From NCBI GenBank assembly GCA_021463645.1, contig JAJTYI010000005.1, positions 64,680 to 128,679 of the forward strand: a DNA stretch of 64,000 nt, read 5' to 3'. The translations under genes were made by a program, and so were the position numbers. Shown here piece by piece: positions 6,700 through 27,512 of this stretch; the first letter of the stretch is position 1, and each line of letters begins with the position of its first letter. This DNA is from a bacterium. GTDB taxonomy: Bacteria > Patescibacteriota > Dojkabacteria > B142 > OLB20. The notes beneath the pieces are model-generated. The model saw nothing but the letters and a program-made list of their open reading frames with translations. It had not been told where the DNA came from and did no database searches.

Positions 6700-6822
6700 T
6701 GAAAGCAACCTACGACAGTATATACGAATGTTTCGCTTTATTAAACGAATATGCAATTTTATTAGATGAAAATCAACCTCAATATTAGTCTAGAGAAATT
6801 TGAGGGACATGTCTACTGGATA

Positions 6823-11514: not shown

Positions 11515-14500
11515 ATGAATGATCCGACTGTTATTCGAGAAGTTCCAGAGACACCTGATCTGGCTGAACAGAATCCTATTCCAGCAGTAGATGACGAAGC
11601 CCTAGCTTTATTTCTCGAGGCTGTAACTGAGGAGCCAGTTTCTGAAGCTACTCCAAAACCTAAACTGAATATTGTAGAAAAATCACTCATCCCAGAAGAA
11701 TTTCTAATCTCAGAGGATGATTCAACAGGCAGGATGAACAAACTTCGAACTTCCTTAAAGCAAACAGAAGAAAGAAACAAGTTACTGATAAGTGCAGCTA
11801 TTGACTCTATACAACTTCAAGCTACTCAGGAAGAATTAGCCTTAGAACCGGATGTAGATAGATTGTATACGACATACGAAAGTTACAGACTTGAAGTTCC
11901 ACAAGATGCTGATACTACAAGAGATCTGAAAGATACAAATATTTTAATTTTACAAGCTACAGTAAAGATAACTGAACTCGAAAGCGAACTTCAAATACTA
12001 GATGAGGAACAGCAGGAGTTAGGCGGAGAAGATGAGATAAAAGCATCTATTGATCAACTTAACGGGATTATAGATTTGAAGGGACATGCAACTGAAGAAG
12101 AAACCAAGACTTTAAATGAATTGTACGATAAGTGGAATCGGCATTATGAATTGAAATTTGCCAAATTAGCAAAAGCTAGAGAAATTCAAAAATTTAATTA
12201 TAGAAAAAAGGAACTAGGCTTTATTCGCCAAAAACTTATTGTATCAACCGAAGGTGATGTAACAAGAAATGTAATCAGAAACGGAGACGATAACTTAAAA
12301 GAAATAATTTCAGATGGTTTCCTTATCAAGACCATTCGACAGAAATATATTCAAGATCATGTCTTGGGTGAAATCGAAAGCGCATTTAATGATGGGATCA
12401 TGTCAGAAAACGAAATCCGTGGCATGTTTAACTTAATAAACGATTATGTAAAAAATGTAGACGGTCAGAATGCTGTTGAAAGAACGGCCCAAGAGGTTGA
12501 ATTAAAGAGGCTATTCAGTAAACATACTAATTTAAAAAAGACTGAACTGTTTTTCCATATTATCAAAGAAGGGTGGGACGGATCGGCCATCAGCATATTG
12601 ACTAAACAAACTTCCATGAATCAGATCAAGGAATTACAAGGTAGAGTTGATGAGCAGGTCGAAGGTGAAAGACTGAGAGATCTTTTGTCAACGAATAGAG
12701 AGGTCAGGAACCTTTTCAAAGAAAGTTGGTCCAACACTCAGCTGTATCATGCTTATCTACCATTCAAAATGCAAGATTTGTATGTCCACGATAATACTCT
12801 CGGTGTACCCTTTACATCTATTTGGCAGACAACCAGAGAAACACTACAGGCAAATGACTTGATGGCGACAGAATTGTCACAAATAGACGAAAAACTTCAA
12901 CATAATATAATCGTAGAAATATTGGATGGAAAAACCCATTCATTACGAGAATTAGAGTATTTTGATTCTCCACAAGTCATCAGGATTTTATTCATTTTAA
13001 GTACGAGTAATAAAGATTTTTTTTCAAGTGGAGAATCTTTTAGAATGCTGAGCCAGATATATGAAAGCGATAGATGGAACGAAGTGAGAGATAATGCGAT
13101 CAGCATGTATCCAAATTTAAAAGGTTGTATAGAATTATTTGAGAGTAAGAATCAAGAATCTAATCCTAATAATGTGATTATAGAAAACCTATTAAGGTCT
13201 GAATTGGCCACAGAACTAATTGACATAATACAAAATCCCGATGATAAGAAATATGCTCGTTTAGCCTCACAGTCTCTAGGTCTAGAATCATTACTCAACG
13301 TCTTGATAGACAATGGGAAGGTAGACATCAACTCAGTTCCCCATATTAAATTAATAATTGAAGGTCTTAATTCTCAGAATCGGGCTATGCTTGAAGACCA
13401 AAGCATAATTGAAGATGATTTATCTAAATTCAAATTTCATCAATCTCTCGTAGAAGCGTTATCAAACCAGGTTCTTGATGAACAAAATGTTGACAATAGC
13501 GTTCTTGCAAAATTTGAAGCAATTTCAAAATTTATTAATATAGAACTAAAGGACGTTGAGATAGATAGTAAAACGATTTTCAGCGTCTTTTCAGGTAAAG
13601 CTTTGAGGTTTGACAATGAAGTAGAACTTTTAACATTCCTCGATACTATAAGAACACACCCTGTTTTATTATCAAATCAAAGCTTATTCGAAAATTATTG
13701 CACTCTTTACAAAACAGAATCATCCTTGCAGTATGTACAATTGTTAGAAGATTGGAAAGATAAACCCGAAGATTTAGGGGCAATATACAAAGCTGTTGAG
13801 TATGGGTACATCAGAGCTGAAGAAGCACTAACATTGAATGATAGAATCGGAAAACTCAATCTCGGAACTGTCGCATTAAATTTATCTCTAGAATTTCCGG
13901 AATTATTTATCAGAGAAACTGAAGGAGTTGAATTGTTGCAAAAGTTAGTTATAGATGGAATAGATAACATAGGACATGATAATGATGTATTGCTTGGGAA
14001 ATATTTAATCAGTATCAAACGGGCAGAAAATATAAGGTTCAATAGGTTTATTGATCTTTTAATACAAATAGATATACAACAAATTAATTCTTTACTCGAT
14101 CAACCTGACAAAGGTCGAAAAGATCTAAATTGGAAGCAAGCATTCCTAGCACAGGGAATCATAGCTACTGGGGTAGTGGACGATAACTTTAAACTGAGCC
14201 CCACTGCATTGAAGAAGTTAGAAGGATTAGTATCTGAAGATGGTTTAAATGATAATCATCTTCGGTATCTAAGAGACGAATATTTAGACTTATTAGAAAA
14301 TGGTGATTTGGCTAACCCAACGGGATCATTAATGCGTTCTACCGAAATATTGCCAATTCTAGCCGAACAAATCAACCTTACACAGATTGCTACTCTGGGG
14401 TCATTCGTCAGAGCTATTACAGTTAATTCAGCTATAGAAACCACATCCCCGAGGACAACAAGAGAAATACAACAAGGATTGTTAATTATGGAGGGGAAAA

Positions 14501-14604
14501 TGAAAGAAGCCAAATGGGCAAATCTCGAGAAATCATACTTCTATGATATTTCAAAAAAATATTGGATACATCCCCTAGTCTGTTCTCATCGTATTTGGAA
14601 TTGA
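11515..14604 (+). CDS. Large acidic hypothetical protein (1029 aa), no recognisable domain
   Basis: A long uninterrupted ORF starting at ATG, with no TM segments, a helical E/K/L/D-rich composition, and N-terminus MNDPTVIREVPETPDLAEQNPIP. Confidence 0.7.
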   Translation: MNDPTVIREVPETPDLAEQNPIPAVDDEALALFLEAVTEEPVSEATPKPKLNIVEKSLIPEEFLISEDDSTGRMNKLRTSLKQTEERNKLLISAAIDSIQLQATQEELALEPDVDRLYTTYESYRLEVPQDADTTRDLKDTNILILQATVKITELESELQILDEEQQELGGEDEIKASIDQLNGIIDLKGHATEEETKTLNELYDKWNRHYELKFAKLAKAREIQKFNYRKKELGFIRQKLIVSTEGDVTRNVIRNGDDNLKEIISDGFLIKTIRQKYIQDHVLGEIESAFNDGIMSENEIRGMFNLINDYVKNVDGQNAVERTAQEVELKRLFSKHTNLKKTELFFHIIKEGWDGSAISILTKQTSMNQIKELQGRVDEQVEGERLRDLLSTNREVRNLFKESWSNTQLYHAYLPFKMQDLYVHDNTLGVPFTSIWQTTRETLQANDLMATELSQIDEKLQHNIIVEILDGKTHSLRELEYFDSPQVIRILFILSTSNKDFFSSGESFRMLSQIYESDRWNEVRDNAISMYPNLKGCIELFESKNQESNPNNVIIENLLRSELATELIDIIQNPDDKKYARLASQSLGLESLLNVLIDNGKVDINSVPHIKLIIEGLNSQNRAMLEDQSIIEDDLSKFKFHQSLVEALSNQVLDEQNVDNSVLAKFEAISKFINIELKDVEIDSKTIFSVFSGKALRFDNEVELLTFLDTIRTHPVLLSNQSLFENYCTLYKTESSLQYVQLLEDWKDKPEDLGAIYKAVEYGYIRAEEALTLNDRIGKLNLGTVALNLSLEFPELFIRETEGVELLQKLVIDGIDNIGHDNDVLLGKYLISIKRAENIRFNRFIDLLIQIDIQQINSLLDQPDKGRKDLNWKQAFLAQGIIATGVVDDNFKLSPTALKKLEGLVSEDGLNDNHLRYLRDEYLDLLENGDLANPTGSLMRSTEILPILAEQINLTQIATLGSFVRAITVNSAIETTSPRTTREIQQGLLIMEGKMKEAKWANLEKSYFYDISKKYWIHPLVCSHRIWN

Positions 14605-16454
14605 TGCACTCAATGTCTAAGAATGAACTGAAAACTTTTGTAAAAGAGGTCTACCCTTTATTTAATACAAAATTAATATTACTTCAATCTGATTCAGAAC
14701 CTGACCATATAAGAAACCTCGTCATTATCAGAGAAGATGTGAGAAGTTTTCATTCTGCATTGGCTAAAGGAGAAACAGACGGTGAACAGAAGAGACAACA
14801 ATTAACAGCAGAAATAGTGGGTCTCGTAAGAGAAAGATATGGGATTAAAGATCTCCCAGAAACACTTACCTCTGTACAGTATCGATCTATTAACAATTTC
14901 GCAATGTATCTTACCAATATGGAGGGAAGAACTGAACTAAAAGAAAATATATTGGCTCTTTATTTAGCATTAACCTTAAAAGGCGAATGGAAGCAGCTAA
15001 GGAGTGGAAATAATATCAATCCACAAGTTCTCCTGAAAGAAGATAAAGCTTTAACACTAGAACCAGTAGTCAGGTCTCAAGAGATTGTAAATTCACGTAT
15101 TTACGGAATATTAGGAGTAGAGGCTGAAAGCCAGGAGAGATTCCAAGCAATACTTCAAAGCGATGAAATGGTACGCTCCGAAGGCATGTTACAAACAACA
15201 GATGTGAAATTAATGAATTTAATCAGTAACCTTCGAATATTTGACGATCCAGATATATTTAGTGACGAGTTGGATTTAGTTAGGTATAACCTACTCGGTA
15301 AATACGGGGATAAAACTTTGAATAAGAGTGTAGCTATGATATACAGGAGTTTATTAAATGGTAGTGTCACTCTAGGAGAAGAAGAGCAACAGATCCGAAC
15401 TGAAATTGAAGCTGCTTTGAAAAAAAGTAACCTAGAATTCACTGTGGGAAATCTGAAACAATATTTCCAGCAAGGTTTAATACCTTTTGTGAATATTTAT
15501 AAAATAAAACAAACGATAGTAGAGGGTGATGTTGAGAGAAGAATTGAAGATCTCCGCCAATCTCTTTTACCCCCAAGCAAAATCATAGATATCTTTTCAA
15601 AATTGGGAGAGGATTTCAGACCTCAGTCAGGTGCTATGGCGTTAACACAAGATGTAAGCTTTTTGGAAAATTTAGTTGTAAAGAAGGAGGATGATTTAAC
15701 ACAAGAAGAACTTGATGAAATTTCAAAATATTTAGCACCTATTAGAGAACAATTAATCGAACTCGAAGAAATTAATGTTATCCTTGCTGGTAAAACCAAA
15801 CCATATAATGATACAGACGATTCTGTCAGAGGAGATCTGCTAAAGACACAAATTAAAATGATCGACGAAATCGTTAAATCCAAAAACGAGATTGAACCCC
15901 TGGTAAGCACTTCAACGAACGACTTAAATACAATTATTGAAAATTTGCGTGCTTGTTTGTCCTGCAAAACCGCCGAAATAAATAATAGTACGAATCTGAC
16001 TTTCGGAGAATCGTACAAATTTTATCTCTATACTGCTGCAGCTTCCCAAAGCGAAGGTAGTATTGCTGATCAAATCGTGTACTTCGTGCCAGTAAAAAAG
16101 TCCGGGGAGGAAGATGAGATGTCGTTCGTTTTTGATCAAGTTTACGGTAGTTCCACACCACTGATATTAAGCAATCATGTCAACACTATCATAGCTAAAA
16201 TGACCAAGTTGAGGGAAGCATTCCCTGACATGAAACTTTCCATTTTTATCCCAAAAAACACACTGACCTCTGTAGGAACATCTGCTGAAATCTTGAAAGA
16301 TCAATATTTGACTTCCGATTTGACAGTATCAGATGAGTCATTAACTGTGGATATTCCACAATCAGAATTTGGTGATCATTATGTTGAATTTGGGGGCGAA
16401 GCACGTGAGCCCGGACAAAGAGAAGTGCAAGGTGTAATGCTACGAATGCTTTAG
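14604..16454 (+). CDS. Large hypothetical protein (~616 aa from ATG 14604), translationally coupled to the upstream gene
   Basis: The track ORF begins at TTG 14562. The first ATG (14604-14606) overlaps the upstream stop TGA (14602-14604) as TGATG. No motifs recognised. Confidence 0.65.
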   Translation: MHSMSKNELKTFVKEVYPLFNTKLILLQSDSEPDHIRNLVIIREDVRSFHSALAKGETDGEQKRQQLTAEIVGLVRERYGIKDLPETLTSVQYRSINNFAMYLTNMEGRTELKENILALYLALTLKGEWKQLRSGNNINPQVLLKEDKALTLEPVVRSQEIVNSRIYGILGVEAESQERFQAILQSDEMVRSEGMLQTTDVKLMNLISNLRIFDDPDIFSDELDLVRYNLLGKYGDKTLNKSVAMIYRSLLNGSVTLGEEEQQIRTEIEAALKKSNLEFTVGNLKQYFQQGLIPFVNIYKIKQTIVEGDVERRIEDLRQSLLPPSKIIDIFSKLGEDFRPQSGAMALTQDVSFLENLVVKKEDDLTQEELDEISKYLAPIREQLIELEEINVILAGKTKPYNDTDDSVRGDLLKTQIKMIDEIVKSKNEIEPLVSTSTNDLNTIIENLRACLSCKTAEINNSTNLTFGESYKFYLYTAAASQSEGSIADQIVYFVPVKKSGEEDEMSFVFDQVYGSSTPLILSNHVNTIIAKMTKLREAFPDMKLSIFIPKNTLTSVGTSAEILKDQYLTSDLTVSDESLTVDIPQSEFGDHYVEFGGEAREPGQREVQGVMLRML

Positions 16455-16478
16455 AACTTTGAAATAAAATTTACTTCA

Positions 16479-17084
16479 TTATGTGATCCTATTCTTTAAC
16501 TTCTGAATTAGAATTTTTAGGTCTTCCCTAACGTACCCCAAAACAACCTCATCAATCTCATCTTGACTATGATTCCCCACAGGCAGTGATTCAAATACGA
16601 AAGACAAAACATTCTTCAATGGATTGATCCCCTCTTTTCTTATTATCCCCTGTTCATTCCCGAGGAATATTAAAGGGAGCCTGGATTCGTAATAATAATA
16701 TTTACCTTTTGATTTGTTATAAATTGCGTAGGACCTTACTTCTTCTATAGAATCCCCTACGTTTAGCATTTTCCCTGATAAAATATCATCGACTAATTCT
16801 TTTGAATTTGCGGTCAACAAATTCTTCGAAGGGATACAAAAACCATCATCAATTCCTATGATTATAGCAATCTCCGCATATTCTACTTTCTTTTCTAGCA
16901 TTTTCAATGCAAATTCTACTTTGTCTTTAGCTCTTTCTTTCAAGGTTCCGACTTCTTCATTCTCTTCTAATAATTTATAATCACGGAGATTTTTATATTT
17001 ATAGTTAATAAGTCCCAATTTCTGGAAAATTCCTTTTGTAATGTTGAATTTGTCTATGTTTTTTGTGGCAACGAGGACGATCAT
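16479..17084 (-). CDS. Hypothetical protein, possibly a divergent Ham1/ITPase-like NTP pyrophosphatase
   Basis: VLVATKNIDKF, EEVGTLKERAKDKV and IIGIDDGFCIPS loosely recall the ATxNxxK / E..G.T..ENA..KA / DDSG pattern of the Ham1 family. The similarity is weak. Confidence 0.4.
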   Translation of the reverse strand: MIVLVATKNIDKFNITKGIFQKLGLINYKYKNLRDYKLLEENEEVGTLKERAKDKVEFALKMLEKKVEYAEIAIIIGIDDGFCIPSKNLLTANSKELVDDILSGKMLNVGDSIEEVRSYAIYNKSKGKYYYYESRLPLIFLGNEQGIIRKEGINPLKNVLSFVFESLPVGNHSQDEIDEVVLGYVREDLKILIQKLKNRIT

Positions 17085-17245
17085 AATTTTTATGTGTATT
17101 GTGTTTTTCAGGCTAATTATTAATTGATTATACTTACTTTAGATTAGATTTTGCACTAACGATAAATAACGAGAATTGTGGCTTTCCTTTTATAATTACG
17201 TTTAATAAAGGGGGAAAGCGTAGAATAGAGAAAAAGAAATCATTT

Positions 17246-17464
17246 CTATTCCTGTATCACTTCGTATCTAAATATTTCAGTAATCTCAACACCAAAAGCT
17301 TCAGCTATCCGAAAAGCCAGATCCAATGATGGGACATATTTTCCAGCTTCGATAGATATTATTGTTTGTCTGGAAACACCAGCCTTCTCGGCCAGCATTT
17401 CCTGAGTCATTCCGTTATTATTAAAACGATATTTTCTAATGTTGTTTTGAACTTTAATTTTCAT
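17246..17464 (-). CDS. XRE-family helix-turn-helix transcriptional regulator (72 aa)
   Basis: [41 protein letters not shown] is a canonical Cro/C1-type HTH. Confidence 0.85.
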
Positions 17465-17469
17465 AAATA

Positions 17470-17982
17470 TTATTCCTTACTGTAAAAGTAAAGTTGAACT
17501 GCACCTTCAATAATTGATCCCAACATACAACTGAGGAATAGGATATTTAACATGACAATCGCAGTTTGTCCCATTGCGAGTGCACCAATTGATATGACAA
17601 TACCAAAACCTGTTAAATAATATCCGACCTGTAATGACTTGCGTTCGATTTGTTTAACTCTTTCGTCTTCGACCATTTCCTGTTTTATTCTTTTTTCGAC
17701 AAGCTTATCAAATTTCTTATCTTCAAGTGTGGAGTCCTTCACTTTTTCTTCCACAGCAATGGAAACCGATAATAATATGTGGAATATGATTTGAATCACA
17801 ATATTTACAACAATCGCAACTCCGATAAATAATAGGATTTTAGTAGCAGTCTGTTGTAAATCATCTGAATTTCCACTTTTGTTTACTACGGGAAGAATTG
17901 TAAAACAATAGACAAGAAAAAGTACGAGACCACAGGTTATACTGACAAGGGTCTTTTTTTGCTGATAAGACATATTTAACAT
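17470..17982 (-). CDS. Membrane protein co-transcribed with the XRE regulator
   Basis: The 170-aa ORF has four hydrophobic segments and a charged central loop. It ends 5 nt before the start of the XRE gene. Confidence 0.6.
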
Positions 17983-18083
17983 TTAATAAGTAATAATGAT
18001 TTATACAATAATTATTCTCTGATGTCAAATACACTTTACATTATGTAATATATACCATACTTATATAGAAGACTTAAATTATT

Positions 18084-18230
18084 GGGAATTAGAATATGAT
18101 GAGAACGGCCACAACTCAGGCTGAGTCTGAACTTCTCTACTCTAAATACGAATCTTATTAGTATGGTCAGATAAGACCAGGGTACTTATGACGCCTTGTT
18201 TTCAACACATTCACCCAACCAAATAGATAG
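18084..18230 (+). repeat. Interspersed intergenic repeat, copy A (divergent)
   Basis: GGGAAT...GGCCACAACTCAGG core (18084-18120), plus a weaker extension (GACCAGGGT) resembling copy C. Confidence 0.5.
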
Positions 18231-18308
18231 GACCAACTTGAATTGTTACTGGCAGGGTTAAGTGTAAGTTCAATTGGGAACTCTTATTTTTCAGGTCTTG
18301 ATCTCCAT

Positions 18309-21209
18309 TTAATTTGTAATCGCAAATCCCACTATATTATTAACCCAATTATAGTTTTCAGGAGATCCGAAAGGTTGTGAACCGCTAATATCTCTAACCC
18401 TGCCAATCTCTGGCATTAAGCCATAAACATACTGCTGATCAGGAGAGCCTGCATGAACAGAACTAGAATCCGATAAATTGACAACATTTCCGTTCAGATC
18501 TATGGTAGGACTTGTTTGCAATATGTGACCATAGATATGTGGTGCCGTGAGTGACAAAAATGTGTTTGAATAAACAATTTGGGATGATGTCATTCCGGCT
18601 GGATCAGTCACGCTTCTAAATGCAGTACCTTGTGCTGGTATTCCCGCCGGGCCTTTCATTAGCATATTGTTTAATTTACCACTCATCATATTTCTAAGAG
18701 ATGCACCACCCACGATAGGATTGGGATTAAAGTTCCCTTGATCCGTCCAAGACCAGAGCAGATTAGCTACATCAATCGATGGGTTATCTTTTGGTACATT
18801 CTCCCAATTTGTAATCCACCACTTTCCTGTTTGTCTATCAACACATAAGAATTCTGCATTCACTGCAATATCTCCATTTCTAAAAGATGTACCTTCGATT
18901 CCACCTATCCTATTCGTAGGACGAAAAGGTTCTTTTTCCTCACCTTCCCATAACCAATCAACAACAAAATCAGCGAAAACCTTATCACCTCCACCGGCAG
19001 CTTTTACGATTGAACCAGCATCTGTTCCATAATACACACTTGCAAAATCTTGGTTTTCCCCTTGCCATAACCCAGGAGTCAACATTCCTTTTGATTCATC
19101 AGGGAAATAAACAACCTTTGCTATAGCATTTTCAGGGAGTTTCTGTCCTAGCAAATTTTGTAGATCACTTCCAAACAGCTGTCTGATGTATTCATTAGAA
19201 GATATTTCACTCGGCAATGAGTAATATAGATATGTAATACCAGAATCTGGGTCTTTTTCAATGTTAGTTCCTAAGTACTCTGGTGATAAAGTTGACAGAA
19301 ATTCCTGAGCATCTTCAAGTGATTCAATCTGTAGTATTTGATTTCTTACTTCTTCAGACAGAGTGATATCTTCGACGGGTCTCTGAATAAAAGTATTTAC
19401 TGCTTCTTCTTGTACTATATCATTTCCGATCAGATCAACTTCAGCTCCGCTTCTTACCCCACTATCATCTACAAGTGTACTTTCACCCCCGGAAGTCTCT
19501 GTAACTCCAACACTTGGTTCAGCTACTGTTACTTCAGTCACATAGTTAGTTTTTATTGCTTCATTTTCCACTACTGGAACTTCAATGTTTTCGTTAAGAA
19601 CGATATCTTCCCCCACACCCAAATCAATCTCGGACTCCCCAATTTCAGACATAAATATAAACCCGGGAGGTGCCACATCCCTACAACTTAGACCTCCAGG
19701 AATCCAACTTTGGAGTATTCTTGGTAATATTGAATAATCCCCAGTATCATCCACATATGCAGCTAGTGCTTCACAATCAGCGTCACCAAATTTTTCATTC
19801 GCATTGTAGAAAGTACTTTTTGCAAGTTCTTTTGCATTAGATGCACTTACAACACCGGGTTTGGCTACAATTCCCAACCCCAAACCTATTAATATAGTTG
19901 TACTAGCTACTAGCAGTTTTACTCTGGTTCTTATCTTTGGCCATTTTCTTCTTTTCTTTTCCATGCTGTTTTCTGCAGTTATAGTTTGTGCCATACCCGC
20001 AGTGACCTCCGCTACTTCATGTTCTTCTACTCCTAAAAGCTCTGCTGTTTCTGCAGTTATCATTTCAGTATCACCAGAAAGTGCATCAATTACTATTGCT
20101 GTTTGATCATTTTCTACAACTTCCCTTACAACCTCATCTGCACCTAAATATTCAGATGCTTGAGCATTTTTATAGTTTATTGCACTCGCATATGGAGTAT
20201 CAAACTGATAATTATTTTTCCAGATTCTATACTCGACCTTCCCTTTAGCACTTTGCAATATCCTAACTAATGAATCGGATGATCCCGACTGTTTTAACAT
20301 TTTAATTCGTTCATCAAGTGTGTCACTAATAAACTCCAAACTCGAATCTGGGTGTAAATTATAGTTCCTCACCTCCCCCGCAATTTCGTAAAGCAGTTGA
20401 TCCGCAACTCTTCTTCCTTTTGCATTTATTCGCACCGCCTGTTTACCTCCATTCTCGGAAATGTTTACACAACTTTCTACTTCCCCAATTGTTGTTAATA
20501 ATTCGTCAATAGATTCTTCAACTTGTGTGTTGCCAGATCCAAACTCAGGTCCCAAGAACCTTGCTAATTCTTCAACTACCGGATAAACCTGGTCGAGTTC
20601 TACAGATAACATACTTGCAACACGAGAAGAATTATACTTTTCTCTTTCGTCAAGATACTCATAAATTCCGGTCGTGTCTTGTTCTGAAGCGAGTCTATTT
20701 AACTTTGTTAAATCAGCCGCATTTAAACCAAGGTTGTCATGTGTAATTCCGATAGAATTCAAATATTCCTCAGCATGTTCTTTTTGTTCTCTGTATTTAA
20801 TCTTACCGATAGCTGAATTGATCAATTTCCTTTTTGCTTTTACTTGTTCATCGTCTGCTCCACTTCGATTTAAATCCTGTCTGATTTGTAATAATTCAAC
20901 CAAGCCGTTTTTACCATCAGTCAAATATATATCAGCGATTTGTTGAGATACTTCTCTACCTTCATTATTAATTCTTAAGGTATTTTTTCCAGACTCAGAT
21001 ATATGCGAAACCATACATTTAGATGTGTCGACGTTATCAAGAATTTGTGTAATCTTTGTGTCTCTATCATAAGAAGCAATTTGATCTTCTGTTATAGACG
21101 CAAAAAATTCAATGGGTAGATCGGCCACATCTCGTAGTTGGTCACCATTTCTATCAGGACTTGCAGGACTAGTTGATACATCTGGAGTTTTTAAAACCGG
21201 TTCATTCAT
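18309..21209 (-). CDS. Large bitopic hypothetical protein (966 aa) with an internally duplicated N-terminal region, a central TM helix and a C-terminal extracytoplasmic domain
   Basis: Two homologous segments are visible. The first has CMVSHISESGKNTLRINNEGREVSQQ...GKIKYREQKEHAEEYL, the second CVNISENGGKQAVRINAKGRRVADQ...GKVEYRIWKNNYQ...ASEYL. A hydrophobic segment LLVASTTILIGLGLGIV lies at ~19860-19935. Confidence 0.75.
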   Translation of the reverse strand: MNEPVLKTPDVSTSPASPDRNGDQLRDVADLPIEFFASITEDQIASYDRDTKITQILDNVDTSKCMVSHISESGKNTLRINNEGREVSQQIADIYLTDGKNGLVELLQIRQDLNRSGADDEQVKAKRKLINSAIGKIKYREQKEHAEEYLNSIGITHDNLGLNAADLTKLNRLASEQDTTGIYEYLDEREKYNSSRVASMLSVELDQVYPVVEELARFLGPEFGSGNTQVEESIDELLTTIGEVESCVNISENGGKQAVRINAKGRRVADQLLYEIAGEVRNYNLHPDSSLEFISDTLDERIKMLKQSGSSDSLVRILQSAKGKVEYRIWKNNYQFDTPYASAINYKNAQASEYLGADEVVREVVENDQTAIVIDALSGDTEMITAETAELLGVEEHEVAEVTAGMAQTITAENSMEKKRRKWPKIRTRVKLLVASTTILIGLGLGIVAKPGVVSASNAKELAKSTFYNANEKFGDADCEALAAYVDDTGDYSILPRILQSWIPGGLSCRDVAPPGFIFMSEIGESEIDLGVGEDIVLNENIEVPVVENEAIKTNYVTEVTVAEPSVGVTETSGGESTLVDDSGVRSGAEVDLIGNDIVQEEAVNTFIQRPVEDITLSEEVRNQILQIESLEDAQEFLSTLSPEYLGTNIEKDPDSGITYLYYSLPSEISSNEYIRQLFGSDLQNLLGQKLPENAIAKVVYFPDESKGMLTPGLWQGENQDFASVYYGTDAGSIVKAAGGGDKVFADFVVDWLWEGEEKEPFRPTNRIGGIEGTSFRNGDIAVNAEFLCVDRQTGKWWITNWENVPKDNPSIDVANLLWSWTDQGNFNPNPIVGGASLRNMMSGKLNNMLMKGPAGIPAQGTAFRSVTDPAGMTSSQIVYSNTFLSLTAPHIYGHILQTSPTIDLNGNVVNLSDSSSVHAGSPDQQYVYGLMPEIGRVRDISGSQPFGSPENYNWVNNIVGFAITN

Positions 21210-21214
21210 TATAC

Positions 21215-21475
21215 TTACTCTTTTGATGATTTAAGTAATTGAATAACCCCTTTTATATCTTTCTTCATAATCGCTTCACGCATAGCTTCTTTTTCTTTAT
21301 CGTTTGCATTACTTACATATTCATTCAAAATATGTGCAGAATAACTATTTAACAGTACAGAATCAGAATTCTCCATATCTTCGAAAAAGAATTGCATAAG
21401 ATCATCGTTTAAATCCAATGTTTGCATGAAAAAGTTATTAATATACCCAATTCTACTACATTTGAACGAATTCAT
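21215..21475 (-). CDS. Small hypothetical protein (86 aa), 5 nt upstream of the 966-aa gene
   Basis: ORF only. Position suggests co-transcription. Confidence 0.45.
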   Translation of the reverse strand: MNSFKCSRIGYINNFFMQTLDLNDDLMQFFFEDMENSDSVLLNSYSAHILNEYVSNANDKEKEAMREAIMKKDIKGVIQLLKSSKE

Positions 21476-21630
21476 GTTGTATTTTTTTTAATATAATTAT
21501 TAACGCAATCCTATGTTGCACAGGAGTATTAAAGATATATAGTTTGTATTCCGAGCTATTGGATCTTAAATATAATTTTTATTAGATTATCAGACAACAC
21601 TTAGTTTGATGTGAGTGAAATGCGGATAGC

Positions 21631-21670
21631 GGGAATGGCCACAAGCCACAACTCAGATTAAGTTAAAAGG
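21631..21670 (+). repeat. Interspersed intergenic repeat, copy B (short)
   Basis: GGGAATGGCCACAAGCCACAACTCAGATTAAGTT. Confidence 0.6.
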
Positions 21671-21682
21671 ATGATGGAAAAG

Positions 21683-22108
21683 CTAATTATTGAGTTGTTT
21701 TTTTAGCTTTTCTAATTCTTTTGAAGTCAAACTTTGAAATATGTTTCGTTCAAAGACCTGAGCTTCCTCATAAAGTTCATCGAAAAGTTCTCTCGGCTGT
21801 AAGTGAAAATGTAAATGATTTACTTTTATTCCATCTTGTTTTTGAAAGGGCCTATAATGCTGCCTTATATCACAACCAGAAGCGATATTATTTAAAATCT
21901 TCTCATGAAACTCAATAATCGTTCTAAATAACTCTTTTTGTTCTGCCTCACTCAGTTCAGATAGTCTCTCCACATGTCTTTTTGGAACAACCAAAAGATG
22001 TCCAGGCATTAGACGAGGATTACTAAAGATTACTCTTACAAATTCTTTTTCAATAATAATCTCGTTTTTTGTTTTTTCTGAATCTATTGTACAAAAAGGA
22101 CATTTCAT
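21683..22108 (-). CDS. HIT (histidine triad) family nucleotide hydrolase/transferase
   Basis: The HxHxHxx triad VNHLHFHLQP is present, with PGHLLVVPKRH upstream. Confidence 0.85.
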   Translation of the reverse strand: MKCPFCTIDSEKTKNEIIIEKEFVRVIFSNPRLMPGHLLVVPKRHVERLSELSEAEQKELFRTIIEFHEKILNNIASGCDIRQHYRPFQKQDGIKVNHLHFHLQPRELFDELYEEAQVFERNIFQSLTSKELEKLKKQLNN

Positions 22109-22290
22109 AAATATTTACTGTGTAAGATTGTGTTGATTATAACCAAGATTTGATGGTGGGGGAAAGGTTGGAACTTAAAAAAGATTATTTATGCATAAAT
22201 CCCATTCTAAATAATGTTTATCTACAAAATTAAGTAGGCCAAAACCTCACCTGATATTAATAAATTCTCTCTTTATGATACAATCCAGCT

Positions 22291-23100
22291 TTGATATTTA
22301 ATGTGGATATTTCCGTATTACAGTTAAATTTTTGTCAGGGGCAATATCTAGAAAACTTCTCCACCCTGATCGGTCAATATGGACCTGATATTATTACTCT
22401 GCAGGAAGTAACCGGTGGGGAATATTCCCGTAGTTGCCTTGATAATTATGATTTTCTACGTAGAGAACTGGGTGAAATCTACCACATGTCTCTAATTCCT
22501 AGATTTCATAATGAAGGAGATCCTAGTAGCTATTTTGCAAATGTAACTTTGACAAGGAAAGAATTGGGAAGAGCTAATCACAGAGTTGTTAGATTAAATT
22601 ATCATGAGACCACAGATACTCCTACAGTACCCAAGGAAGGTTACCTCGATCCTATTCGTTATCCCTACTCTGTTTTAGTAACAAGAGTAAATGCACTTAC
22701 TATCTTCAATGGACACTTCACAATTACTCAGGATAAAGATCCTGGCTATAGTCCTTTAAAGATTTTTAGGAACCAAATACTTTTAGATGAAATTAAAAGT
22801 ACGGAGGGACCATGGATTCTGGCAGGGGATTTTAATACTCTTGCACACGATGAAAGCGTAACTATGCTTGTTCCTGAGGGTGGTCATAATCTTATACTGG
22901 AACATGGAATAAATAATACGATAAATCCAATTTCTCATCCTGAATGGTCAGCTATTCGTATGCGAAACGAGGAAAGAGGTGTGAATTGCGATAATATAAT
23001 AACAAGCAGAGGAATTGAAACTATTTCATTCCGTGTTCTAAATGGCAATGTTGTATCAGATCATTTACCTTTGTTGATGGAGGGAAGATTAAGTTTTTAG
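22291..23100 (+). CDS. Endonuclease/exonuclease/phosphatase (EEP) family protein
   Basis: ITLQEV, ILAGDFN and the C-terminal SDHLPL are EEP catalytic motifs. The start codon is uncertain: the track uses TTG 22291. Confidence 0.8.
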   Translation: MIFNVDISVLQLNFCQGQYLENFSTLIGQYGPDIITLQEVTGGEYSRSCLDNYDFLRRELGEIYHMSLIPRFHNEGDPSSYFANVTLTRKELGRANHRVVRLNYHETTDTPTVPKEGYLDPIRYPYSVLVTRVNALTIFNGHFTITQDKDPGYSPLKIFRNQILLDEIKSTEGPWILAGDFNTLAHDESVTMLVPEGGHNLILEHGINNTINPISHPEWSAIRMRNEERGVNCDNIITSRGIETISFRVLNGNVVSDHLPLLMEGRLSF

Positions 23101-23167
23101 CGAGGATTAGATTGAGTTTGAGCAAAAGTAATCAGGGAAAATATACGTAGAAAATTCATCACTTGGC

Positions 23168-23290
23168 GGGAATGGCCACAAGCCACAACTCATGTTAAGT
23201 TCAAACTTCGGAACTCTGTGAACGAAACTTGGAAGCCATGACTTCATCGGGAAAGACTAGTCCAGGGTCTTCTTCAATTCCCAATAAAAA
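23168..23290 (+). repeat. Interspersed intergenic repeat, copy C (long)
   Basis: GGGAATGGCCACAAGCCACAACTCATGTTAAGTTCAAACTTCGGAACTCTGTGAAC... The first ~50 nt are nearly identical to copy D. Confidence 0.65.
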
Positions 23291-23309
23291 CCGATAGTAT
23301 TCTAAGCAT

Positions 23310-23339
23310 TTGACACACAGGCTGCAAGAGTTGTAAAAT
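23310..23339 (+). promoter_or_regulatory. Sigma-70-like promoter for the T-box leader
   Basis: TTGACA (23310-23315), an 18-nt spacer, then TAAAAT (23334-23339) preceded by TG. It lies about 20 nt upstream of the proposed Stem I. Confidence 0.4.
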
Positions 23340-23346
23340 CAATGCA

Positions 23347-23624
23347 ATTGAATAAAACTAGAAGAAAAGTAGCTTAATTGTTGATCACTTAGCAAGTCAA
23401 AGTAGCTGAAAGTTTGACAGAAGTCATAATTAAGTAAAAGAGCTTCTTTTTAATTTAACCGAAGAAAGCATTTTGCAAGTAGGTTAATAATAAAAATGAT
23501 AAATTGATTGATTTATTATTTTATTAATTAAGTATAGAGGTTAACTCTATAGAAGAAAGATGGTACCACGAGAAGGCTCTCGTTCTTTCACTAAATAATT
23601 AGTGTAAGAGCGGGAGCTTTTTTT
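23347..23624 (+). promoter_or_regulatory. T-box riboswitch leader (antiterminator/terminator switch)
   Basis: Antiterminator parts: helix A1 GAAAGA (23555-60) pairs with TCTTTC (23584-89). A 7-nt bulge TGGTACC lies at 23561-67. Helix A2 ACGAGA (23568-73) pairs with TCTCGT (23578-83) around loop AGGC. A competing terminator pairs GCTCTCGTTCTTTCAC (23576-91) with GTGTAAGAGCGGGAGC (23602-17), followed by T7. A Stem III hairpin TATAGAG/CTCTATA sits at 23533-51, and a Stem I candidate CTTAATT(23373-79)/AATTAAG(23428-34). Confidence 0.75.
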
Positions 23625-23639
23625 ATTATTAAAAATACA

Positions 23640-23696
23640 ATGCAAAAAATTAATTTGAGAAGAAACAGAACTAAACATAGGCGGAAGCTCGTTTGA
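23640..23696 (+). CDS. Candidate Arg-rich leader peptide (18 aa, MQKINLRRNRTKHRRKLV)
   Basis: ATG 23640 to TGA 23694-96, with 5 of 18 codons Arg (AGA x3, AGG, CGG). The 3' end (CGGAAGC, 23682-88) is complementary to the 5' arm of the terminator that follows. No obvious Shine-Dalgarno. Confidence 0.3.
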   Translation: MQKINLRRNRTKHRRKLV

Positions 23697-23712
23697 TCTC
23701 TGTTATCAATTT

Positions 23713-23739
23713 AGGCTTCCGAAAGGAAGCCTTTTTTTA
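23713..23739 (+). terminator. Intrinsic terminator 16 nt upstream of the argH start
   Basis: AGGCTTCC, a GAAA loop, GGAAGCCT, then a T-run. Confidence 0.7.
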
Positions 23740-23754
23740 TTTTATTAATTAATT

Positions 23755-25137
23755 ATGAAAAAAACTAAAACAAGCCACGACAAACTATGGGGGAATGCAT
23801 TTACAGAGTCTCCTGAAAAATTAATGATGGAATTTACTTCAAGTCATGACGTTTACCCTATCAATCCAGCTGATTCTGTATTGATACCTTATGATATAAA
23901 ACAAAATATTGCCCAAGTGAAAATGCTCTATAAACAGAAGATATTAAACAAGAAAGAGCATAATAATTTACTAGAAGGATTAAACCAATTATATGGTCTC
24001 TGGGAAAAAGGGGAATTTGTATTAGATCCAATGTTAGAAGACGTTCACACAAATATAGAGAATTGGCTAAGTAAAAAATATGGGATCGATGTTGGAGGGA
24101 AAATACACACAGGACGTTCACGAAATGACCAAGTAGTCACAGATATGTATTTATATCTTCATGACCAAATCCAATACACAATCAAATCAATCCAACTTCT
24201 GAACAAGAGTTTATATAAAAGTGCAAAGAAATATCAGGATACAATTTGTCCGGGTTATACACACCATCAACATGCGGTAGTGACTAGTCTTGGACTTATT
24301 CTACATTCATTTAATATTTCTTTTAAGCGCGATATTAAAGGCTTGCAAGATCTTGCACAAAAGTATAACTACTCCCCTCTTGGCTCAGGTGTAGGTTACG
24401 GAACTTTAATCAATATTGATCCGACATTTTCAGCGAAAGAACTTGGTTTTGAGAGAAAGTTCAAAAATCCAATTGATGTAATATCTAATCGAGGTGAATT
24501 TGAAGCAGCTCTAGCATTCCAAATTTGTCAATTTCTGAATCATGCTTCAAGTCTTGCACAAACATTTATTCTCTTCTCAACTACCGAGTTTGGGTTCTTG
24601 AAACTTGCAGACCATTATTCAACGGGTAGTTCAGCCATGCCACAAAAGAAAAATCCTGATGCTTTGGAGTTAATCAAATCTACTGCTTCCGTCGCAAACA
24701 GTAACGTTTCAGCATTAATGCAAATTACAAAGGGAAACTTAATTGGATATAACCGCGACACTCAAGAAACTAAACACATTGTGTATCACCTATTATCAAA
24801 AGTTGAACTAATTCCAAAAATCCTTAGTGGAATTATCGAGACAATTACAGTATTTCCAAAGGTCCTGGAAAACCAGGCTAACAAAGGATTTATTAATTCT
24901 CTTGGATTAATGGAGATGATTATAAACGAGACAGGTTTACCAATGCGAAAAGCCAAAATTTTAATCGAGTTAAGCATAAAAAAATCTGTTGAAAATGGTT
25001 TCTCTGACAAAGTGGATTTTATATCTTTCAAAGAAGCGCAACAACTCTCAGGAATTATTTGTGATATTTCGGAAGAAAGTTTTTACGTGTGGCAAGATGC
25101 GAATTTTCAATTTAATCAATTAGATTTTAATTATTAA
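23755..25137 (+). CDS. argH: Argininosuccinate lyase
   Basis: GRSRNDQV and the fumarate-lyase signature GSSAMPQKKNPD are present; 460 aa. Confidence 0.95.
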   Translation: MKKTKTSHDKLWGNAFTESPEKLMMEFTSSHDVYPINPADSVLIPYDIKQNIAQVKMLYKQKILNKKEHNNLLEGLNQLYGLWEKGEFVLDPMLEDVHTNIENWLSKKYGIDVGGKIHTGRSRNDQVVTDMYLYLHDQIQYTIKSIQLLNKSLYKSAKKYQDTICPGYTHHQHAVVTSLGLILHSFNISFKRDIKGLQDLAQKYNYSPLGSGVGYGTLINIDPTFSAKELGFERKFKNPIDVISNRGEFEAALAFQICQFLNHASSLAQTFILFSTTEFGFLKLADHYSTGSSAMPQKKNPDALELIKSTASVANSNVSALMQITKGNLIGYNRDTQETKHIVYHLLSKVELIPKILSGIIETITVFPKVLENQANKGFINSLGLMEMIINETGLPMRKAKILIELSIKKSVENGFSDKVDFISFKEAQQLSGIICDISEESFYVWQDANFQFNQLDFNY

Positions 25138-25207
25138 TTATTGTTTATGAGAAAAACAAAATTCTATCTGTAACTTAAATCTATTTAATAAATTTTAAAA
25201 CATAAAA

Positions 25208-26461
25208 ATGAATACAATCACAAAATATCATAAAGTTTCTTCCTATGAAGCCAATATAGGAGAATTCGACAAGGTATTACTTCTCTATTCGGGAGGACTT
25301 GATACTTCTATCATGATTAAATGGCTTCGGGACAACTACAAAATTGATGTTTACACATTAACCATGGACATTGGTCAACAAAAAGATGATTTGGAGTCAA
25401 TAAAACAAAAAGCATTGAAACTTGGTGCTAAAGAAGCAATCATCATTGATGCGAAAGATGATTTTGCAGAATTAGTTATCTCGAAAGGTATCAAAGCGAA
25501 TGCGAGTTACCAAGGTGACTATCATTTATCAACCCCGATGGGTCGTGTGATAATTTCTATGAAAGTTGTCGAAGTATGCAAAAAGAAAAACATTTTTTGC
25601 GTTGCTCATGGTAGTACTGGAAAAGGTAACGATCAGGTACGATTCGAATCGTACATTACAACATTAAATCCAAAAATAAAAATAATTGCGCCCGTTCGTG
25701 AATGGATGATGGATCGAAATGAGGAAATTAAATATGCCTTGAAGAACAAAATACCTACTCCGGCGAATTTTGATTTTCCTTACAGTGTGGACGATAACAT
25801 GTGGGGAATGACATGGGAAGGAGGCGAAATCGAAACACCAGAAGAGATAGCAAGAATCGAGGAATTTTTGACGACTTATACATTAGCCGAAAAGTCTCCC
25901 GAAAAACCGGAAATTATCAAAATAGAATTCAAGAATGGTCTTCCTGTAAGACTTAACGGTGAGGAATTAAAATTATCTGATTTAATCATCAAACTTAATG
26001 GGATTGCTGGAAAACATGGTGTAGGCGTTGTACATATGTTGGAAGATCGTTTAATTGGTGTAAAGAATCGAGGTGTATATGAGCTTCCAGCAGCACATGT
26101 AATTATCAAAGCACACAAATTTTTAGAACAATATGTTTCAACTCGAAACTTGAATGAATATAAGAGTATGCTTGATATTAAATGGGGGTATATGTGTTAT
26201 GGTGCCCTATGGTTTGACCCTTTAATGGATGCGATTAATGCTTTCAATGATAAAGTGAACGAAATTGTGGAAGGTACCGTGACTATAAAACTTCACAAAG
26301 GGAAAGCAGAAACAATTGCAATAAAATCACCATACGGTTTAATAAACACCTCCTTTAACAATGATGAAGGTCATAACTTCAATGTGAATGCAAGTGCAGG
26401 TTTCATTGAAATTTATTCGTTACAAATGAATAAAGCTTATAATAATAAGTTTCTGAAATAG
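25208..26461 (+). CDS. argG: Argininosuccinate synthase
   Basis: YSGGLDTS (ATP-binding PP-loop), HGSTGKGNDQVRFE, and GRV/EDR motifs; 417 aa. Confidence 0.95.
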   Translation: MNTITKYHKVSSYEANIGEFDKVLLLYSGGLDTSIMIKWLRDNYKIDVYTLTMDIGQQKDDLESIKQKALKLGAKEAIIIDAKDDFAELVISKGIKANASYQGDYHLSTPMGRVIISMKVVEVCKKKNIFCVAHGSTGKGNDQVRFESYITTLNPKIKIIAPVREWMMDRNEEIKYALKNKIPTPANFDFPYSVDDNMWGMTWEGGEIETPEEIARIEEFLTTYTLAEKSPEKPEIIKIEFKNGLPVRLNGEELKLSDLIIKLNGIAGKHGVGVVHMLEDRLIGVKNRGVYELPAAHVIIKAHKFLEQYVSTRNLNEYKSMLDIKWGYMCYGALWFDPLMDAINAFNDKVNEIVEGTVTIKLHKGKAETIAIKSPYGLINTSFNNDEGHNFNVNASAGFIEIYSLQMNKAYNNKFLK

Positions 26462-26507
26462 AGACTCTTGGAACACAATTGAATAATCGGAAGCATTTTC
26501 TCTGAAA

Positions 26508-26600
26508 TGGGAATGGCCACGGCCACAACTCAGGTTAGGTTCAAACTTCGGAATTTTGAGAATGAGAGCCTGGATTATGCATTTGGTCTTACCCGTGGTT
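26508..26600 (+). repeat. Interspersed intergenic repeat, copy D
   Basis: GGGAATGGCCACGGCCACAACTCAGGTTAGGTTCAAACTTCGGAATTTTGAGAA... Confidence 0.6.
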
Positions 26601-26613
26601 TGGGTTCAAAAGC

Positions 26614-26898
26614 TCACATTTCCTTAGTTAGCAACCGTTTACTTAGAAATGCTTTACCTGAAGACGTTTTTAAATATTTTTCGAAGGATACTGCCCGATC
26701 TTTCGCTAAAAAACTTAAATAGAAATTCAACCTCCAAGGTGTGCAACCCTTCGTTGAAATAACTTTACCTCGATTATGATATTGCAGTCTGTTCTTCAGA
26801 TCTGTAGTTATTCCCACATAATTTCTTTTGGGATCTTTTTTACTCACAATGAAATACACGTAATACATAGTATTGCAATAATACATATTACTTAACAC
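26614..26898 (-). CDS. GIY-YIG nuclease superfamily protein (94 aa)
   Basis: YYVYFIVSKKDPKRNYVGITTDLKNRLQYHN matches the GIY...YIG...R...H/N pattern of small stand-alone GIY-YIG proteins. Confidence 0.85.
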   Translation of the reverse strand: MLSNMYYCNTMYYVYFIVSKKDPKRNYVGITTDLKNRLQYHNRGKVISTKGCTPWRLNFYLSFLAKDRAVSFEKYLKTSSGKAFLSKRLLTKEM

Positions 26899-26927: not shown

Positions 26928-27054
26928 GCCCAACTTCGCATAAGCTACGTTGGGCTCTCATTCTTCGTCAACTTTTCACTACATTCAAAACCAATAATAC
27001 TGGTGGCTTGCCATTCGAAGCTGTTTTGAACGAAGTGAAAAATAGCGAAGAATG
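26928..27054 (-). other. Nested inverted repeats immediately 3' of ssrA (possible terminator or att relic)
   Basis: Three inverted-repeat pairs: GCCCAAC(26928-34)/GTTGGGC(26949-55); CATTCTTCGTCAACTTTTCAC (26959-79) against GTGAAAAATAGCGAAGAATG (27035-54); inner TTCAAAAC/GTTTTGAA. Confidence 0.35.
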
Positions 27055-27512
27055 GAGATGGCGGGAATCGAACCCGCGTCCAAACGATACAGCGACTTAC
27101 ATACTACAAGCTTAGTTGATTTAATTTGAAACAGTTTGATCGAAATCAACAAAAGCCAAACTGCTTTGATTTATAAGTGCTTCGATTTTAAGCATAAATC
27201 AAACTTAAAACCTGCAACTTGACTAAGTTTCTCCCCAACCCTCCCGCCAAGTGAGGAGAGAATGAGAAGGTTGCTTACTTGTCCGCCGAAGCTTACGCGA
27301 AGGCGGGATTAATTAGGCAACAGCAAAGTTGAATTGAGGTTCGACATTGAAAAATGCTACTACTCTATCAACGAAGCCTTGAATTTTGGTTTTGACGCTT
27401 AAGTCAATTTCCGATTGCTCGGAATATCCTCCCATTTTTAACGAAGTGGCAGGATAAAGCACTTCGGCTTGCTGTAAATCACGGTCATCATCTGTCGAAG
27501 CCGATCATCCCC
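27053..27512 (-). ncRNA. ssrA: tmRNA (transfer-messenger RNA)
   Basis: The minus-strand RNA begins GGGGATGATCGGCTTCGACAGATGATGACCG and ends GGACGCGGGTTCGATTCCCGCCATCTCCA. The acceptor pairing GGGGAUG/CAUCUCC includes a G-U at position 3. An internal open frame ends ...QFNFAVA-TAA (stop at 27313-27315), consistent with a proteolysis tag. The CCA end is not encoded. Confidence 0.9.

Follow-up and report, generated by a model that had tools for sequence, protein, structure and literature searches.

Results

Organization of the region downstream of ssrA

The DNA analysed here (the window, 64,000 nt of a contig from a Dojkabacteria genome) carries ssrA, the transfer-messenger RNA (tmRNA) gene, whose 3′ end is directed into a region with four short repeats between 18 and 27 kb. 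The repeats, named copies A to D in order of position, separate modules of 0.5–3.5 kb: a 966-aa gene with an 86-aa gene, a HIT hydrolase gene with an endonuclease/exonuclease/phosphatase-family (EEP) gene, a T-box-like leader with argH and argG, and a small GIY-YIG nuclease gene with ssrA (Table 1). Both these module labels and the orientation of ssrA had been put forward in an earlier note on this DNA, and they hold against the Pfam and Rfam matches. Genes within modules are of mixed orientation, and promoters and a leader of their own are present. We interpret the repeats, with a probability of about 0.74, as relic recombination junctions of integrative elements that had the 3′ end of ssrA as their attachment (att) site.

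The program ARAGORN overlooks ssrA in the window, yet it detects the gene in the near-identical strains L006 and L007, with a long tag peptide of 27–28 aa. An indel and dense substitutions set the strains apart inside the gene, around 27277–27329.

A four-copy repeat in one orientation

Within the 64 kb the 33–46 nt motif is confined to positions 18108, 21631, 23168 and 26509. Matches to its 12-mer GGCCACAACTCA, with at most one mismatch, number four (18107, 21644, 23181 and 26521), all on the plus strand, against 0.07 expected by chance; four were reached in none of 100 shuffled sequences. All four copies are intergenic according to the positions of the open reading frames (ORFs), bearing out the earlier description of a same-strand intergenic family, and each lies at most 190 nt from the 3′ end of at least one gene. 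Alignment of the strains with the window shows the copies cut off at differing points.

The extent of the individual copies required some revision. The long consensus is matched exactly at B (21631–21664) and C (23168–23201), as had been claimed; copy D begins at 26509 rather than 26508 and misses the ungapped consensus because it is one base shorter, the base being absent between two GCCAC repeats (GGCCAC-GGCCAC). Identity between C and D continues for about 46 nt, through CAAACTTCGGAA, close to the 50 nt or so first noticed. A divergent copy had been placed at 18084–18120; copy A exists, with homology beginning only at 18108 (GCCACAACTCAGGCTGAGTCTGAACTTC), and the GGGAAT at 18084 is not homologous to the complete form of this copy in other strains (score 10 versus a null of 14.7).

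The motif adjoins displaced copies of the ssrA 3′ end

The left edge of copy C had been noted to match the 3′ end of ssrA over some 10 nt, and this match withstands comparison with shuffled sequence: the 10-mer TGGCGGGAAT has just two sites in the window, one at copy C and one at the ssrA end, with 0.03 occurrences expected and two seen in none of 100 shuffles. We regard this short match as true homology because related contigs carry longer versions, of 18/18 nt in L003 and of 65 nt at 89% identity at copy A of L006, L011 and L019.

In L003, a contig found by scanning metagenomes with the motif, AATGGAGATGGCGGGAAT lies directly left of the motif and equals the reverse-complemented ssrA 3′ end (27051–27068) at 18 of 18 positions. 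Further to the left, 23 of 25 positions match window 26990–27014, in the downstream flank of ssrA. In this contig, then, flank and the terminal 18 nt of ssrA lead into the motif instead of the ssrA body, which is the anatomy of a recombination junction.

The conspecific contigs L006, L011 and L019, which come from two independent samples (SRR32799347 and SRR23814900), have a complete copy A preceded by GTGGCTTGCCATTCGAAGTTGTTTTGAACTAGTGAAAAATAGCAAAGAATGGAGATAGCGAGAAT. This is a 65-nt, 89% identical copy of window 27003–27068, made up of 16 nt of the ssrA end (14/16 identical) and 50 nt of flank; aligned locally, it reaches a score of 93, where the null is 14.7 ± 2.4 (p<0.0005). With the ssrA end and its flank present as a direct repeat on both sides, the entire block of approximately 9 kb from 18.1 to 27.07 kb is bracketed.

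Traces at the other copies are shorter. Copy B agrees with the ssrA end at 13 of 16 ungapped positions, GGGAAT included, and in L011 and L014 nine extra bases turn this part of copy B into GGAGATAGCGAGAAT, of which 15 nt are identical to the copy A core of L011. Within the 10 nt upstream of GGGAAT, the matches to the ssrA end amount to 7/10 at B, 5/10 at C (the last four contiguous) and 1/10 at D. A decayed core at copy A of the window and att-like pieces along the left border of the adjacent variable segment were not significant or marginal (p = 1.0, 0.22 and 0.03).

The conserved motif itself is not derived from ssrA, and we read it as an element-side arm next to the displaced ssrA end. A derivation from the ssrA body was considered and rejected, as local alignment gives the 18-nt core alone. 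Likewise rejected was a tRNA primer-binding site: what the units reproduce is the gene sequence (gaaTGGAGAT...), and a TGG able to pair with an added CCA is missing from them.

Directly abutting the real ssrA end in the window is TAGCGAAGAA, a string also repeated in L030; this is suggestive only, of a present-day ssrA flank of the element type. The downstream flank (26973–27055) is rich in inverted repeats, among them pairs of 19 nt (89% identity) and 17 nt (76%). Its 25-mer ACCAATAATACTGGTGGCTTGCCAT, conserved in L003 (23/25), may mark a putative terminator or binding site.

The same arm stands beside tRNA-Glu in relatives

A scan of species-representative genomes with the motif returned one exact copy, in L001, a Dojkabacteria metagenome-assembled genome (MAG), where it lies about 55 nt downstream of tRNA-Glu(CTC) and next to the nusA-ylxR operon. 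L001 is matched at 93% identity by contigs L030 and L035, whose study (SRR173186xx runs) also yielded window-identical contigs; L030 and L017 stem from one sample. In L001, L030 and L035 the arm is preceded by TGACCCTACGG, which is the neighbouring tRNA-Glu's 3′ end lacking 1 nt. The arm is therefore joined to two different tRNA-like ends, and both junctions fall at one position, the boundary of T-loop and T-stem. Between the species the arm is 95% identical amid unrelated surrounding sequence.

L030 and L035 have two units 160 nt apart, while L001 has a single hybrid unit, so that the number of units is variable. Each unit of L030 and L035 begins with 30-nt hairpin repeats ending in TAGCGAAGAAGAA (variant TAGCAAAGTCGAA in unit 2). 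These are followed by TGACCCTAC(GG), which is the tRNA-Glu 3′ end TGACCCCTACGGGA minus one base and is shortened in unit 2 by a GC-rich insert, then by (G/A)GAAT and the motif.

Two other readings of the L001 locus were discarded. The string GGATGGTGACCC left of the motif, considered as a T-box, is a remnant of the tRNA-Glu acceptor, and Rfam gives no T-box in L001. Nor does an island with ssrA lie to the right of the motif, the region consisting of tRNA-Glu and the nusA-ylxR operon.

Some neighbouring observations concern tRNA loci more generally. L031 and L032 (downstream of ylxR) part from L001 and L030 just upstream of tRNA-Glu and have no tRNA there, indicating that the tRNA-Glu locus is structurally variable as well. 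In the related MAG GCA_037138855.1 (L064, 11992–12261), a pair of exact 99-nt tandem units stands behind tRNA-Gln, each opening with a 16–17 nt copy of the tRNA-Gln 3′ end with its junction in the T-loop; they lie near an argH-argG-NUDIX cluster and have no far-side repeat. GC-rich palindromic inserts of the type CCTGCCTGC...GCAGGCAGG break tRNA-like sequences or the tRNA-Glu pseudo-end at L064:12300–12440, L030:2300–2262 (minus) and L001:7418–7445, and may represent a small palindromic insertion family.

A serine-recombinase element occupies the ssrA 3′ end in other strains

Contigs L011 and L014 depart from the window sequence at 27056. The 8.6-kb contig L056 spans what is inserted there: the ssrA 3′ end (...ATCTCCA, then CCAtttg) is followed by a large serine recombinase gene, a 58-aa ORF and genes for a Rep_O-like protein, a helix-turn-helix (HTH) protein and an RrnaAD-family (Erm-like) methyltransferase. 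Pfam gives the recombinase Resolvase, Recombinase and Zn-ribbon domains (in the L036 copy). At the far junction ...CTTTAAGTCCA meets TTCTTCGC, which is window 27056 read leftward, and GIY-YIG and argG follow. The 4-kb element is accordingly placed exactly at the ssrA 3′ end, with TCCA common to both junctions, and it gives ssrA an encoded CCA. It was located at L056:1–4030, in L036, at L011:11850–13026 and at L014:7940–9108, and in L036–L045 this element end borders on other flanks. Many assemblies break at 27056–27084, as the coexistence of occupied and empty forms would cause. Judged from these contigs, ssrA is a live attB, an insertion site in present-day use.

The far arm of this element holds a decayed ssrA-3′-like stretch of about 78 nt (p = 0.0007). 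A relationship between the motif and an arm of the element was also considered, and no similarity was seen (p 0.36–0.77).

Strain comparison places mosaic boundaries at copy B and ssrA

Exact-protein look-ups yielded more than 20 contigs of the same species, at 96–99.5% identity, and public records list near-identical proteins under Candidatus Dojkabacteria. The only polymorphic parts of the region are the 4-kb element and a 948-nt segment at the left edge of the array (Table 1). The latter stands in place of 92 nt of the form seen in L006 and L011, comprising flank, an ssrA-like core and 14 nt from the start of copy A (GAGAATGGCCACAA), and homology with that form picks up again at 18108, within copy A.

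Most strains equal the window from 15208 to 21671, differ by 3–6% between 21672, which is 8 nt beyond copy B, and about 22514, are then near-identical (single mismatches at 22647 and 22791 and one in argG) to 27096, and show dense differences from 27097, inside ssrA. In L011 and L014 a divergence of about 6% begins before 16000 and ends at 21654, inside copy B, after which they match the window fully as far as 22799. Two independent mosaic boundaries thus fall within 21655–21671, at the right edge of copy B, and one at the ssrA core; the remaining boundaries (22514–22800) are inside the EEP gene. Three of the six boundaries lie at most 30 nt from sites that cover 5.4% of the block, giving a rough, post-hoc binomial p of about 0.003.

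The mosaic boundaries support the view that the repeats divide the region into units with separate histories. Of the earlier suggestion that the modules are separate units, this part stands, at the copy B edge and the ssrA core; presence or absence of single modules is not seen among the conspecific contigs. The pattern would fit site-specific exchange and equally homologous tracts ending where neighbouring modules differ, and does not tell the two apart.

Palindrome, substitution rate and folding of the motif

The arm contains a 13-bp palindrome, TGGCCACAGGCCA, which is perfect in L001, L003 and unit 1 of L030 and has one defect in each window copy. A palindrome intact elsewhere and damaged in the window may be what is left of a protein-binding site. 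Comparison of the window with L011 gives 5 differences over 158 nt of motif and 196 over 6774 nt of coding DNA; a motif rate no lower than that of coding sequence fits a relic rather than a selected site.

The complete copy A unit of L006 can form a long imperfect hairpin (GTGGCTTGCCATTC pairing with GAATGGCCACAAGCCAC, with a 3-nt bulge) of −34.5 kcal/mol (z = −5.2), a stability equalled in 0 of 200 shuffles. Copies B, C and D are without the left arm, and the hairpin was found for the complete copy A only.

Gene content of the block and neighbouring features

Coordinates are collected in Table 1. GC content differs little between the 18–27 kb bins (0.318–0.387) and the flanking bins (0.321–0.427).

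Table 1. Features of the repeat array and its surroundings (window coordinates).
Feature	Position	Strand	Remarks
Strain-variable segment, 948 nt	17160..18107	.	Xre-type HTH protein of 72 aa and membrane protein of 170 aa
Copy A	18108..18140	+	Left-truncated in this genome; complete in L006/L011/L019
Module A–B: 966-aa and 86-aa genes	18309..21475	−	No Pfam family
Copy B	21621..21664	+	TGCGGATAGC (ssrA-3′-end-like remnant), then GGGAAT, then motif
Module B–C: HIT hydrolase (minus) and EEP-family protein (plus)	21683..23100	.	Pfam
Copy C	23164..23213	+	TGGC + GGGAAT, a 10-nt exact ssrA-3′-end match, then motif through CAAACTTCGGAA
Module C–D: promoter-like site, T-box-like leader, argH (Lyase_1), argG (argininosuccinate synthase)	23310..26461	+	
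Copy D	26509..26553	+	ssrA-like part reduced to GGGAAT; palindrome spacer 1 base shorter
Module D–ssrA: small GIY-YIG nuclease gene	26614..26868	−	
ssrA-proximal copy of the 65-nt direct repeat	27003..27068	.	50 nt of downstream flank and last 16 nt of ssrA
ssrA (tmRNA gene)	27050–27512	−	Rfam RF00023, 117.5 bits, full length; 3′ end faces the repeat array
Insertion point of the 4-kb serine-recombinase element	27053..27056	.	TGGA (TCCA in ssrA sense); occupied in some conspecific strains

The T-box-like leader at 23353–23590 (+), upstream of argH-argG in a genome of the candidate phyla radiation (CPR), scores 52 bits (E 2e-9), below the Rfam gathering score of 93. It is preceded by a sigma-70-like promoter (11/12) at 23310–23339 and followed by two hairpin/T-run sites. 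Left of the array, ORFs of 1029 and 630 aa overlap at 11515–16454 (+); a single 1646-aa gene is found in all other strains, and the split hints at a frameshift or faulty sequencing of the window. A heliorhodopsin gene lies at 61737–62516 (−; PF18761, E 1e-95), its cluster members being named heliorhodopsin HeR of Candidatus Dojkabacteria.

Discussion

Model of the junctions

Read in the sense of ssrA, each unit would consist of the element-side arm with its 13-bp palindrome, the displaced last 16–18 nt of ssrA from the T-loop onward, and a flank that would resemble in type what now follows ssrA. Elements would have recombined in the T-loop region and split the target gene; the incoming element would have provided a replacement 3′ end and flank, with the old end staying at the far side of the island beside the element arm. 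Later loss of the recombination genes would leave recombinase-less modules between att relics, built by accretion in the manner of cis-mobilizable elements (CIMEs). We infer that a site-specific recombinase made the motif junctions, and the palindrome is its predicted binding site; the order of events is likewise reconstructed. Damage to the palindromes and decay of the cores make it less likely that copies B to D are still active.

Several observations weigh against this interpretation. No recombinase gene linked to the motif was seen in any locus, and Pfam scans of the main ORFs from 16.5 to 27 kb and of most other non-overlapping ORFs of at least 90 aa gave no tyrosine or serine recombinase; the scan of the window left aside six ORFs outside the array (62995–63285, 96 aa; 1–6756; 11515–14604; 14562–16454; 33489–37904; 42060–45860). 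No intact element with a contiguous attP was found in species-representative, metagenome and viral scans, the three scans of viral contigs giving chance matches only. The array A–D is complete in every conspecific contig spanning 18–27 kb, partial contigs keep the gene order, and no empty site was seen among them. The modules carry ordinary metabolic genes. From sequence comparison ArgG looks CPR-like rather than foreign, its nearest relatives being other CPR proteins at 70–76% identity; the nearest non-conspecific ArgG is merely 76% identical and lies in another gene context, and yielded no sister-species synteny or empty site. Sequence left of B, C and D has no significant similarity to the ssrA flank (p 0.26–0.56), and at D only GGGAAT is left of the ssrA-like part. 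The L030 units, 160 nt apart and free of cargo, are odd for islands.

A further difficulty concerns the order of insertion. The ssrA-derived part is best kept at A, the copy farthest from ssrA, and worst at D, which is the opposite of simple stacking with the newest element next to ssrA. The earlier note had offered relics of serial att sites among its explanations: att relics at ssrA are borne out by the 18-nt identity in L003 and the 65-nt homology at copy A, and the serial order is not. The 9-kb block might have arrived as one composite with older internal scars, or later elements might have joined at the distal junction; either of these tandem routes, both known for CIMEs, would explain why the farthest copy is best preserved.

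Alternative explanations

The folding of the complete L006 unit invites a different reading, in which inverted repeat, ssrA-like core and motif together form a small non-autonomous mobile or cassette-boundary sequence, resembling a miniature inverted-repeat transposable element (MITE) or an attC site, that was moved in trans beside tRNA-like 3′ ends and brought or exchanged short cassettes. The cargo-free pair of units in L030 against one in L001, the small recombinase-less modules and the mosaic boundaries at copy B would all suit such a unit. Set against these are the missing left hairpin arm in B, C and D, the lack of target-site duplications, the lack of copies away from tRNA-like genes in the 64 kb or in one whole MAG scanned, the failure to find an IntI-like or other recombinase in the window, and modules of mixed gene orientation with their own promoters and leader. 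We consider this reading unlikely. The MITE-like element proposed in the earlier note fares no better, since copies are confined, on one strand, to the 9 kb adjacent to ssrA, terminal inverted repeats and target duplications are lacking, and a related MAG holds one exact copy. At similarly low odds stands a Dojkabacteria cassette system acting in trans, in which recombinase-less modules would be swapped at the 3′ ends of ssrA and tRNA-Glu by a recombinase encoded elsewhere; its boundaries may be the conserved arm of about 45 nt with the 13-bp palindrome. It would be compatible with the strong full-unit hairpin, the variable cargo-free units, the two mosaic boundaries at copy B and the lack of a recombinase in cis. 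Somewhat less probable again is a history without any site-specific element, whereby duplication and homologous recombination (Campbell-type insertion or unequal crossing-over) at the ssrA 3′ flank merely co-copied the motif. A 65-nt direct repeat reaching 50 nt beyond ssrA is indeed long for an att identity block, the difference between L001 and L030 resembles unequal recombination between units, and the exact tandem duplications of L064 include 17 nt of a tRNA-Gln 3′ end; yet it would leave unexplained one arm joined to ssrA and tRNA-Glu at the same T-loop/T-stem boundary, its conservation across species in unrelated surroundings, and a perfect palindrome of the kind that proteins bind.

We give little credence to a host signal acting in cis at gene ends, whether terminator, small RNA or operator, even though every copy is near a gene 3′ end and the palindrome could serve as an operator. 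No terminator-like site overlaps any copy, which counts against the terminators suggested earlier; the suggested small RNA family is likewise unsupported, given folding z-scores of −1.0 to +1.0 for motif segments of 57–61 nt on both strands and the lack of Rfam matches to the motif even at E≤5. Neither a stable structure nor the U-tract of an intrinsic terminator marks the motif, the palindrome is damaged in all four window copies, the strains show no sign of purifying selection, and the copies are truncated at different points. Scarcely credible, finally, is descent from the 5′ end of a protein-coding gene. In one frame C and D translate to TTHVKFKLRNSVNET and TTQVRFKLRNFENES, which differ by conservative replacements, and public gene calls list a 71-aa ORF (26507–26722, +) that starts in copy D. 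Stops close this frame within 8–17 codons in A, B and C and, read in the same frame, early in L001 and L003, and B and C are out of frame with an ATG. The 71-aa ORF is probably spurious: neither a Pfam family nor a relative in the window was found for it, it runs antisense through the GIY-YIG gene, and its frame is closed in the other motif copies.

Comparison with known systems

The closest known case is that of the ssrA islands of Dehalococcoides, tandem elements with direct repeats of the ssrA end, about half of which are without an integration module and have been read as cis-mobilizable or fixed (McMurdie et al., 2011; PMC3146451). There too the genome is small, and a series of islands follows ssrA on its downstream side, with the gene itself or direct repeats of its 3′ end as their borders; in intact elements a large serine recombinase adjoins ssrA, as it does in the 4-kb element of L056. 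In contrast to that system, the ssrA-derived repeat is here decayed in three of four copies and the adjacent element-side arm is conserved instead, the modules are much smaller, and the outer repeat is 65 nt, extending 50 nt beyond ssrA, versus 20 bp. The DsiB/DsiA integration module found there next to attL is absent from the array, and the element of L056 and L036 has a single large serine recombinase next to ssrA with partners (Rep_O-like, HTH, RrnaAD) other than those of the Dehalococcoides module.

CIMEs have lost their integration and transfer genes and kept their att sites; a new element may integrate into a resident att site, or a whole composite may arrive (PMC5704250). Modules bounded by motif and core units and devoid of recombination or transfer genes are what the array has, and the CIME description fits the testable features. 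The CIMEs and tandem accretions on record (Pavlovic 2004; Bellanger 2011; reviewed in PMC5704250) derive from integrative and conjugative or integrative and mobilizable elements of Firmicutes, with known tyrosine integrases and demonstrated cis-mobilization, whereas for the modules described here no integrase was found.

tRNA and tmRNA islands in the Islander/TIGER sense, as outlined in PMC4383910, regenerate the target gene and leave a displaced 3′ fragment in direct orientation at the far end. An intact ssrA stands at one end of the present block and a displaced direct 3′ fragment at the other (copy A of L006, L011 and L019), with remnants of 13/16 positions at B, 10 nt at C and 6 nt at D in the window. 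Strict membership as an island fails because Pfam scans of the array ORFs give no integrase inside and all spanning conspecific contigs carry A–D, so that relatives offer no empty site. In the tycheposons of Prochlorococcus, new elements at tRNA/tmRNA-adjacent islands push older ones inward and scatter partial tRNAs and degenerate remnants (bioRxiv 10.1101/2020.12.28.424599); those have tyrosine recombinases and replication modules and are polymorphic between cells, unlike the array described here, which is fixed in all strains seen. Integron attC arrays are similar in that structured repeats of one orientation part short gene modules next to a fixed insertion point. They differ from the present array in its mixed gene orientation, its own promoters, the tRNA-like gene fragment in the repeat and the missing hairpin partner in three of four copies; neither intI with attI nor a hairpin at every module was found.

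Implications

As a phenomenon the array is most likely not new: it would be a known genomic-island footprint, here in a little-studied lineage and with no surviving gene for the insertion enzyme. Its unusual traits are an arm better conserved than the target-derived repeat, very small modules, and the sharing of that arm between ssrA and tRNA-Glu. If the trans-acting cassette system considered above were real, ssrA would be an integron-like platform for gene capture in a minimal genome.

Little is known of how small-genome CPR bacteria gain and keep accessory genes. The relic junctions, together with the 4-kb element, point to ssrA of a Dojkabacteria species as an insertion hotspot, earlier (the 9-kb block with its internal scars) as well as today, and place genes for arginine synthesis, a HIT protein and nucleases inside the bracketed block. 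The arm, together with attB, attL and attR of the serine-recombinase element, would provide probes for mobile elements, and possibly for usable integrases, in this uncultured lineage.

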